Under the pieces are notes generated by a model that worked only from the letters and a program-made list of their open reading frames with translations, had not been told where the DNA came from and did no database searches. Position numbers and translations under genes: made by a program. A stretch of DNA of 61,282 nt, counting the filler. It is 10 parts of 10 records of this genome, joined end to end, with 100 filler letters (N's around TTAATTAATTAA, not from the genome) between each part and the next. Parts side by side here need not be neighbours in the genome. Positions count along the whole stretch, not along the records: positions 19,465 to 22,678 come from SRR7504441_265; 9 more parts are not named here. One strand, given 5' to 3'. This document shows positions 20,774 to 22,678 of this stretch, piece after piece. Position 1 is the stretch's first letter, and the number at the start of each line of letters is the position of its first letter.

Positions 20774-22678
20774 ATGGATCCACCGTCTCCTGGCATCGTC
20801 TTCGGCGACGCCACCGGACACACCTTCGCAGTCCGCCGAGCCATCGCCGCCTGCTCAGCCTCGCCTCCCCTGGGCTCGGCGCTGCTGCATCTCACCCTGA
20901 CCATCTGCAACGATGCGGTCCCCCGGGACATCCGAATGGAGATGCGCATGCCCCTATCCGCGGGCTCTCGCGTGTGTGGCTTCGCAATGGAGGACGGAAA
21001 CAGCAACTGGATTGAGGCGTCCGCGGTGCCTAAACGTACAGCGGCAGCTGTCGCCTATAAGGAGCAAGAGCTGGGCAGGGAGGTTGCTACGTGCAAGGCC
21101 GTAGCAGATGGCAACGTCTTCGCCACCGATGTCTTTCCGATGCCCTACGGACTGGAGCGCCGTGTGCGTGTGACTGTGCTGAGCCCGTTGGTGGCGACTC
21201 CCTCTGAGCTCCTCCTGAGGCAGCAACTCGGGTTCCTCAGTGGCAGCACTCCAGTTGAGCTGACTCTCGAGGTCCACCCGCCAACTGATGGCGGGCGGGC
21301 AGTCTGCACTGGCGCCGGAGAGGCCGTCTTCAGCCTCCCGCTACCCCCACAGCTGCCGCCCCAACTGCTGCTCTCTCCGGCATTCGCCCAGCATTTCTGT
21401 ATGTCGCTACCTGCTGCTGCCGTCCAATCCGCACTCAGCTCCGTGGTGAACGCGGGCACAGCGCCAGTGGCAGCTGCACGATCTGTCGCGGTGCTCTGCG
21501 ACTGCTCTGCCAGCTGCCGGCTGCCCGGCCGCGCTGAATGGCAAGCCACCTTAAGAGCACTTAGCGCTGCCGAAGCCCGCTTCGATGTTTACACATTTGG
21601 GATCACACTGCGTCGAATCGGCATTGGGCTTGGTATCGAGGAGGCTGTTAGCGCGCTGTGTAGCGTCGAGTCTGATGGGGGCACATGGCTCTTCTCCACA
21701 CTGGAGCTCCTGCAGTCCTTGGAGCATGACAGAATCCTTGTGTTTTCAGACGGTGTTGACAGCTTTGGCCCCGAGGGCAGTGCTAAGTTTGGCGCCGGGC
21801 TGGACAAGAGCCGTTTACAGCGTCCTATTGACTGTGTGATGCTTGAAAGTGCTAGTGTCAAGCCCGCTGTGCTGCGGGGCCTGGCAGCTAGAAGTGGAGG
21901 CAGATTCTACAGCTCTGTGGCCGAATCGTGCAGAGGGCACCAGCAAGCATACATTCAGCGTGTGGAGCTGGGCTTGGAGGAGCCCCAGGATATATTCATG
22001 GACGAGGCACTACGGACTGTTCCAGATTGCCGGTTAACTGCCACGGCGTGGTCAACAAGTGGTGACGGAGGCACACTGGTTGTTACTGGCACACTCGGGG
22101 AGAGCACGCCAGCATGGTGCAAGGTCACTGTCGCACAGGAAGGCAAAGTTGCGGTTGTGCAAATACCTTGGACTGAGGCTCGTGCTGTCGAGTCAGAGAG
22201 CCTAGGTCAGCTGGTTGCACTGCAGCATTGCGAGCAGCTGCTTCGTGAATTGGATTTCATCTCCTTGGACCCAGAGTACACCCAGTCACATGGTGCAGAG
22301 ATTGCAATGCGGTACGGCGTAGTGTCCGCTCACACGACACTCCTACAATTGAATAAAGCAGTCCAGTTTGTGGACAATGAAATTGCTTGTCCACAGGGTC
22401 ACCCAGAGTACGAGACTTATGTCCAGTTAGTCCAAGAGCGTGCCGCCACCGAGCAAGAGCGTGCAGTAAGCAAACAGCAGGCACAGGCCACCAAACAGAG
22501 GGCCGTGCAGAGCATGCTCGGTGAGCTGCAGTCGTATTTTGATGCGCCAACTGTCGTGTCGTGCAAGAGAAGAAGAGAGAGTAGCTTTGGCAACAACTAT
22601 TCGCCAACATCTCCAAGCTACTCACCAACAGCTCCAAGCTACACACCGACATCTCCAAGCTACTCACCAACATCTCCA
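20774..22678 (+). CDS. VIT + von Willebrand A domain protein with C-terminal YSPTSPS heptads (3' truncated), intronless
   Basis: VIT-like MPLSAGSRVCGFAME..GNVFATDVFPMP. MIDAS-like DCSAS, DGGT, LVFSDG. RYGVVSAHTTLL, then heptads. Confidence 0.78.
22598..22678 (+). repeat. 21-bp tandem coding repeat ([27 protein letters not shown])
   Basis: Four units directly visible, cut by the contig end. Confidence 0.95.

Follow-up and report, generated by a model that had tools for sequence, protein, structure and literature searches.

Tandem YSPTSPS heptads are usually taken as a signature of RNA polymerase II (Pol II), whose RPB1 subunit carries them as its C-terminal domain (CTD). What, then, are such heptads doing at the end of an open reading frame (ORF) that encodes a protein of another kind? 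The question is raised by the window analyzed here, a stretch of 61,282 nucleotides in which 10 contigs (3.2–9.8 kb each, 57–64% GC) are artificially joined. On the contig at 19465–22678 (3214 bp), a plus-strand ORF at 20774–22678 encodes the N-terminal portion of a protein of the VIT-vWA family and passes into CTD-type heptads at 22598–22678, where the contig ends. The original prediction saw in these heptads a CTD mimic or decoy, or a borrowed phospho-regulated scaffold, and named a chimeric assembly at the repeat as the main alternative. We find that the feature is real and that it belongs to a little-known VIT-vWA family, in which it forms a new variant. The heptads are probably the lineage-specific, tandem-duplicated start of a PxSP-rich disordered tether between two folded modules, in whose repeat the assembly broke.

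CTD-type heptads continue an unbroken reading frame

The ORF starts with an ATG, runs for 635 codons and is open at the contig end, where the Ns of an artificial joint follow directly (22679–22778; 44 Ns, TTAATTAATTAA, 44 Ns; not biological sequence). The frame is intronless and continues without a break into the heptads, just as first described. The visible array (aa 609–635) comprises 3.9 units of 21 nt, the last of which reads YSPTSP, and agrees with the CTD consensus YSPTSPS at 26 of its 27 residues, bearing out the description of tandem CTD-like heptads on a VIT-vWA frame. The departures are one Ala at position 5 (unit 2) and one conservative Thr at position 2. Tandem Repeats Finder reports the same repeat at 22597–22678 (period 21, 3.9 copies, 86% matches, score 129). 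When all 61 kb of the window were translated in six frames, the motif [YF][ST]Px[ST]P turned up three times, always within 22598–22678, and the heptads are therefore not due to chance. The Pfam Rpb1 repeat model (PF05001) scores 14.0 bits on the array, under its gathering cut-off of 20.3, because only 3.9 units are visible; this score is a lower bound, as the contig end cuts the array.

At the DNA level, the four units are 81–94% identical to one another and differ by three synonymous and two amino-acid changes, with most codon positions fixed across units (CCA ACA .. CCA AGC). Such near-identity fits a recent local duplication of units. The synonymous codon variation reported earlier is thus present in the form of these three changes, but was overstated for units so alike. 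The GC content at third codon positions (GC3) is 0.30 in the heptad units, against 0.54–0.74 in the body. Along the ORF, overall GC drops steadily from 5′ to 3′ (0.67 to 0.52), as does GC3 (0.74 to 0.54).

The coding of the units also bears on where they came from. They might have been copied from the organism's own RPB1 CTD into the linker, by ectopic recombination or retro-insertion, an origin that would be compatible with either a structural or a CTD-like function. The protein fits the consensus closely, and the codon pattern TAC TCA CCA ACA TCT CCA AGC is also found in true RPB1 genes. However, the same 21–30-nt strings occur in RPB1 genes of clearly unrelated organisms and hence are no evidence of descent. 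Moreover, true CTDs vary in how their units are coded, with 22 of 22 distinct units at each of the loci L003 and L004, 14 of 23 at L002 and 11 of 22 at L005, whereas the units in the window are near-copies, unlike those of the RPB1 arrays inspected. We consider borrowing from RPB1 unlikely.

The body has an ITIH/PARP4-type fold

No RPB1 core domain was detected by Pfam, the family profile or Foldseek in the 608 residues that precede the heptads. Instead, this region contains a VIT domain (20888–21175, plus strand; aa 39–134; Pfam PF08487, 27.8 bits against a cut-off of 26.5, with relatives scoring 33–44 bits) and a vWA domain (21476–21973, plus strand; about aa 235–400) identified from its metal-ion-dependent adhesion site (MIDAS) motif, Foldseek and the structural model. 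The MIDAS is intact, with D243-x-S245-x-S247 (nt 21500–21514), DGGT at 301–304 and SDGVD at 325–329, while the Pfam VWA_3 match is weak (14.8 bits, cut-off 27). A beta-rich and helical-hairpin segment that ends the ITIH-like body (21974–22408, plus strand; aa 401–545) holds a conserved CPxGHP motif, and a long predicted helix (22409–22543, plus strand; aa 546–590) forms the last ordered element, with an AlphaFold2 predicted local distance difference test (pLDDT) score of 93–98.

The AlphaFold2 model of the query has a pLDDT of 84.3 and a predicted template modeling (pTM) score of 0.81. By Foldseek, it is closest to ITIH1 (6fpy; E 3.9e-23, ~611 columns, TM ~0.5, 10–13% identity), and many other vWA domains are matched as well. 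Searched against the PDB, a profile of 29 family members retrieved ITIH4 (1.8e-15), ITIH1 (1.5e-10) and PARP4 (2.2e-8). The body is thus not RPB1 but a VIT-vWA fold of the ITIH/PARP4 type whose MIDAS is intact, in agreement with the original prediction on this point. The second-best Foldseek match is 9e5c_4s, a protein of the Trypanosoma brucei flagellar doublet-microtubule 96-nm repeat (E 1.9e-14); this VIT-vWA-like protein is intracellular and plays a structural role.

Compared with ITIH1/ITIH4, PARP4 and other VIT-vWA proteins, the query shares the order of VIT, vWA and C-terminal bundle, the ITIH1 fold over ~600 residues and the intact MIDAS. An N-terminal hydrophobic signal is not apparent by eye, and the query resembles in this respect the intracellular VIT-vWA proteins VWA5A/BCSC-1 and Dictyostelium Vwa1 (PMC10539598). 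Yet with only 10–13% identity to ITIH, PARP4 and VWA5A, the query belongs to a separate protist/bacterial family, characterized by a long disordered linker and a C-terminal module of helical repeats and a beta sandwich. YSPTSPS units are not reported here for any of these named proteins.

Metagenome contigs bridge the body and the heptads

Could the heptads have been attached to this body by the assembler? In such a chimera, the heptad end would have been joined at a shared k-mer from an RPB1 gene, either of the same organism or of a foreign one. The contig does end within the repeat, and its last 21 nt are found exactly in four metagenome loci of 37–49% GC, three of which have RPB1 core domains in the same ORF, with repeats only in the fourth. 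One of these loci has a 30-nt exact match to 22601–22630 of the window, and the low GC3 of the heptads is unlike that of the body.

Parts of the stretch are present in marine metagenomes, namely in 14 of the 20 runs listed, from 10 studies, none of which holds half of it or more. We compared contigs from four of the 20 runs (X1, X2, X3 and X10). A 194-nt contig from the DNA run X1 spans 22459–22652 with 2 differences (99% identity) and covers 139 nt of body and 55 nt of heptads, or 2.6 units. A 258-nt contig from X10, an oligo-dT RNA library, spans 22381–22638 with 13 differences (95% identity), covering 217 nt of body and 41 nt of heptads. Both contigs pass from unique body sequence into the repeat and have the same unit order as the window, so that a chimera at the junction is unlikely. 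Runs X2 and X3 yielded body sequence only (99–100% identity). X1 may be the sample of origin, while the X10 contig, from a diverged relative at 95% identity, cannot be and is therefore independent. These contigs thus support, from outside the window's own assembly, a body joined to at least 2.6 heptad units. The 51-nt records and loose ends in X10 that match the heptads only probably derive from other heptad-coding genes and are uninformative here.

Independent cover stops at 22652, leaving nt 22653–22678 with none. Because RPB1 genes of unrelated organisms share k-mers with the heptads, an assembler could wrongly extend the contig past the verified 55 nt; for the same reason, a short stretch of DNA shared with an RPB1 gene cannot be taken as a mark of descent. 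Nevertheless, the reading frame is exactly kept across the junction, and two relatives, P0034 and P0017, have heptads at the same place. Taken with the bridging contigs in both DNA and RNA, these observations make a chimera very improbable, and the main alternative named at the outset is thus disfavored.

The bridging contigs also differ from the window within the array. The X1 contig carries 22610 T→G, which changes Ser5 of unit 1 to Ala, and the X10 contig has the same Ser5-to-Ala change together with 22604 C→T, which turns Pro3 into Ser. Given these changes at Ser5 in both contigs and at Pro3 in one, constraint looks loose.

The heptads open the variable linker of a two-module family

To place the query among its relatives, we used HMMER to scan 1.84 billion representative proteins, obtaining 332 matches at E≤1e-3, 72 at ≤1e-10 and 6 at ≤1e-30. 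The whole body is covered by 60 of the best 150 of the 332 matches, and the query is collinear with its relatives over aa 2–590 (E 1.9e-75 to about 1e-20). The best relative, the EukProt transcript P0001, is 38% identical (35% in the tree alignment). Full-length relatives are ~1000–1300 aa long and extend 400–700 residues past the first ~600 aligned with the query; as aligned, the query ORF is the N-terminal ~60% of a protist/bacterial VIT-vWA family protein. Named relatives come from the green alga Cymbomonas (KAK3250620.1), the diatom Seminavis (CAB9521611.1) and the dinoflagellate Gymnodinium, and others include an MMETSP marine protist transcript and a Tara Oceans protein labeled COG4676.

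The family layout consists of VIT, vWA, a helical stalk, a disordered linker of 100–300 residues, helical repeats and a beta module with a weak resemblance to DUF2135 (Pfam scores of 16.7 and 19.1 bits in relatives, below the threshold of 22). The ~600-residue body of the relatives closes with a conserved CPxxHP motif and a long helix. An AlphaFold2 model of full-length P0034 displays the same arrangement, with the body at 21–641, a disordered segment at 648–805 (pLDDT 25–35), helical repeats at 809–998 and a beta sandwich at 1027–1148. With this model, Foldseek matched the N-terminal body only and returned nothing for the C-terminal module, and NCBIfam gave just far-sub-threshold matches to the VIT part of the relatives. 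In the query, this C-terminal module would lie past the end of the contig, and a tblastn search with seven relatives did not find it on any other contig of the window. Word-indexed protein searches (with the whole protein, with residues 1–600, and with residues 500–612 against shorter proteins) gave no matches, and so no close relative, whether longer or a fragment, that extends past the heptads, and relatives were absent from the JGI metagenome contigs and viral contigs searched.

The linkers differ between relatives without conservation, being Pro/FG-like in Cymbomonas and acidic, Met/Ala-rich or Gly-rich in others. In the query, the last predicted helix ends at aa 590, aa 595–635 (22556–22678, plus strand) have pLDDT values below 50, and the heptads start at aa 609, 19 residues past the helix; in the model, therefore, the heptads open the family's hypervariable disordered linker. 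Compared with the uncharacterized “VIT domain-containing protein” family (Cymbomonas, Seminavis), whose C-terminus is weakly DUF2135/YfaP-like and with which it is collinear over the body, the query differs in that its linker opens with canonical CTD heptads, while most members have other low-complexity sequence there. The linkers of P0002, P0004, P0005, P0008, P0015, P0021, P0028 and P0048 contain FG-like repeats (PPPFGAA or GGLFG) and many (C/A)AAP(P) motifs amid acidic and Met-rich runs. Motifs of the AAP type are found in more than one subclade and may represent a functional short linear motif.

The disordered stretch of the query also includes a KRRR basic patch (22565–22576, plus strand; aa 598–601), seven residues before the heptads. 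This patch had been called similar to a nuclear localization signal. It is indeed present but weak as a nuclear signal, with a basic cluster in the linkers of five of 19 relatives (22 were examined, and three were dropped for want of a C-terminal motif to delimit the linker). We accordingly dropped KRRR as a conserved nuclear localization signal.

A tree of 61 body sequences, with Shimodaira-Hasegawa-like approximate likelihood ratio test (SH-aLRT) support, places the query as sister to P0001 (support 99), within a clade of 26 rows that contains the named eukaryotes (support 100). The remaining 35 rows form a second clade, made up of unnamed sequences from metagenomes, among them P0136, which is 100% identical to a Planctomycetaceae metagenome-assembled genome (MAG) contig. 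The earlier label of a bacterial-type body is therefore only half right: one clade of the family has a member traced to a planctomycete, but the query falls in the clade with the green alga, the diatom and the MMETSP sequence.

Heptads recur sporadically in the family and on other proteins

Among the 150 matches listed, the strict heptad motif is found in two family members, P0034 and P0017. P0034 has eight in-register heptads at residues 737–792, inside its disordered linker, in which Y1 is kept in 6/8, P3 in 7/8, S5 in 8/8 and P6 in 6/8 units while positions 2 and 7 vary freely. The part kept in P0034 is thus Tyr plus the P-x-S-P core, and this core is the preferred site of proline-directed kinases. 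The linker of P0017 contains FSPAYSPTSPRY. In the body tree, both proteins fall in a diatom-type subclade far from the query. With the carriers so far apart, the heptads recur sporadically in the linker, a pattern that implies at least two origins or many losses. The sequence of P0001, the sister of the query, is cut short, and the ~95 residues that can be seen past its body contain no heptads. The C-terminus of P0001 reads ...ICLLYTSPSPRDS, which may be a translated sequencing adapter; if so, the transcript is artificially truncated and says little about its linker. The partial Cladochytrium protein P0079, with seven heptad motifs, was considered as a VIT-vWA tail and rejected, as BLASTP aligned its heptads only and hhalign against the family alignment gave a probability of 0.1.

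Outside the family, we scanned with Pfam all 28 representatives with at least four strict heptad motifs. Eight have an RPB1 core, 17 consist of repeats only (fragments), and three have other domains: an angiotensin-converting-enzyme-like Peptidase_M2 domain in P0064, from the ostracod Cyprideis torosa; a MATH domain in P0085; and RING, vWA and Vwaint domains in P0144, from the plant Saponaria officinalis. The bodies of these three proteins are unrelated to that of the query. A long YSPTSPS-type array also occurs on P0093, a low-complexity protein to which no domain was assigned. Some of these four may be gene-model or assembly fusions. In the literature searched, we found nothing relevant on VIT-vWA or DUF2135 proteins with heptads or on heptad arrays apart from RPB1.

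A proposed phospho-regulated tether or a possible CTD acting in trans

Two functional readings of the heptads have to be weighed. In the first, the array would work as a CTD in trans, being read by CTD kinases, phosphatases and readers, which the protein would titrate from Pol II or bring to ligands of its MIDAS or C-terminal module. Like the RPB1 CTD, the array consists of tandem YSPTSPS units with predicted disorder, and it fits the consensus at 26 of 27 visible positions. The KRRR patch lies in the same disordered stretch, heptad-like arrays with Y1, P3, S5 and P6 kept occur in the same linker of P0034 and P0017, and the 95%-identical relative was found in an oligo-dT RNA library.

CTD-like sequences on proteins other than the polymerase also have precedents. 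PIE-1 carries a CTD-like YAPMAPT motif. Along with Pgc and Pem-1, PIE-1 is reported to block Ser2 phosphorylation (bioRxiv 10.1101/2021.07.12.452040). A short CTD-like peptide, the Nrd1-interacting motif (NIM) of Trf4, binds the CTD-interacting domain (CID) of Nrd1 in competition with the CTD (PMC4186968). Like the NIMs of Trf4 and Sen1, the query has CTD-resembling sequence on a non-polymerase protein and could compete for CTD readers. However, the NIMs are single, degenerate, non-repeated motifs with proven binding, whereas the query has canonical tandem units.

Several observations weigh against a CTD in trans. No CTD-related domain is found on the protein by Pfam, and the motif is confined to two relatives among the 150 listed matches, 60 of which cover the whole body. 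The visible residues of P0001 have no heptads, and a linker basic cluster is present in just five of the 19 relatives. Furthermore, core positions are altered, both in the variant contigs (unit 1 Ser5 to Ala in X1 and X10, Pro3 to Ser in X10) and in the window itself (Ala5 in unit 2). We consider a working CTD in trans rather unlikely. The proposed CTD mimic or decoy likewise found no positive evidence, given a hypervariable disordered linker, no heptads in the visible part of P0001 and changed Ser5 and Pro3 residues in the variant contigs. In its most far-reaching form, this would be a cellular non-polymerase protein with a genuine, possibly long Pol II-type CTD array, kept as a selected module on an intracellular VIT-vWA/MIDAS scaffold, which could draw in CTD kinases, phosphatases and RNA-processing factors or keep them sequestered. 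Such a design would have evolved repeatedly, both in the lineage of the query and in the diatom-type clade that includes P0034 and P0017; we regard this as unlikely.

We favor the second reading, a flexible tether regulated by phosphorylation, over a decoy of the polymerase tail. According to this reading, the ORF covers the first ~60% of a VIT-vWA protein that is ITIH/PARP4-like and looks intracellular, and the heptads, as the first part of its linker, would have arisen locally when one 21-nt unit was duplicated in tandem; the assembly would have stopped inside this repeat. The heptads would then act as a flexible Ser/Pro-rich tether between the folded halves, and phosphorylation of the P-x-S-P sites by proline-directed kinases could tune the spacing or the interactions of these two halves. 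We infer this phospho-tether role from the repeated PxSP pattern together with the predicted disorder. Identity to the Pol II CTD consensus would be convergent or opportunistic, and a link to transcription would not be required.

Four points count against the tether. A generic Ser/Pro linker would not need to agree with the consensus so exactly, at 26 of 27 residues. Heptads arose at least twice in the family linker, and P0034 keeps the CTD residues Y1, P3, S5 and P6, which could reflect selection for a CTD-type ligand or kinase. With just 3.9 units visible, the full array may be long and canonical. Lastly, the low GC3 of the heptads could hint at a foreign origin, although the difference is not significant by a rough binomial estimate with ~7 effectively independent codons.

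Genomic surroundings

The window contains nine identical artificial joints (44 Ns, TTAATTAATTAA, 44 Ns), at 7270–7369, 15787–15886, 19365–19464, 22679–22778, 28297–28396, 32360–32459, 38985–39084, 47631–47730 and 57513–57612. One stands at each end of the contig with the heptad gene, and genes on either side of a joint are thus not genomic neighbors. Upstream of the heptad gene on the same contig, a plus-strand gene at 19542–20547 runs through three successive frames (19542–20255, 20050–20427, and then ...EDDFHDGPVIEEVFE, ending at ~20547), which suggests small introns or indels. One stretch of its product is rich in Glu, Lys and Gln, and the tail is acidic; Pfam matched neither of the two ORFs scanned (19542–20255 and 20050–20427). 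Rfam gave no match anywhere in the window.

Long unbroken ORFs are present on other contigs, at 1549–3195 (minus), 4612–6369 (plus), 7615–9225 (minus), 9284–10879 (plus) and 41295–42773 (minus). The domains found in the long ORFs of the other contigs are of eukaryotic type and include PLD-like, 2-oxoglutarate-Fe(II) (2OG-Fe(II)) oxygenase, carboxylesterase (364 bits), RCC1 repeat and NOP9-like PUF domains. Such domains on unbroken ORFs fit an intron-poor, GC-rich marine microbial eukaryote as the source.

Implications

If a working CTD array did reside on an unrelated cellular protein, CTD kinases, phosphatases and readers would have clients beyond transcription, or cells would regulate them by decoys. 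In the more likely reading, that of the tether, unit duplication can let a hypervariable, disordered linker drift to an exact match with the CTD consensus, which bears on the possible origin of the CTD itself. For the annotation of metagenomes, the locus is a warning that not every run of heptads is a polymerase fragment. For the family, the comparison outlines a barely described group of protist and bacterial VIT-vWA proteins with a conserved two-module design.

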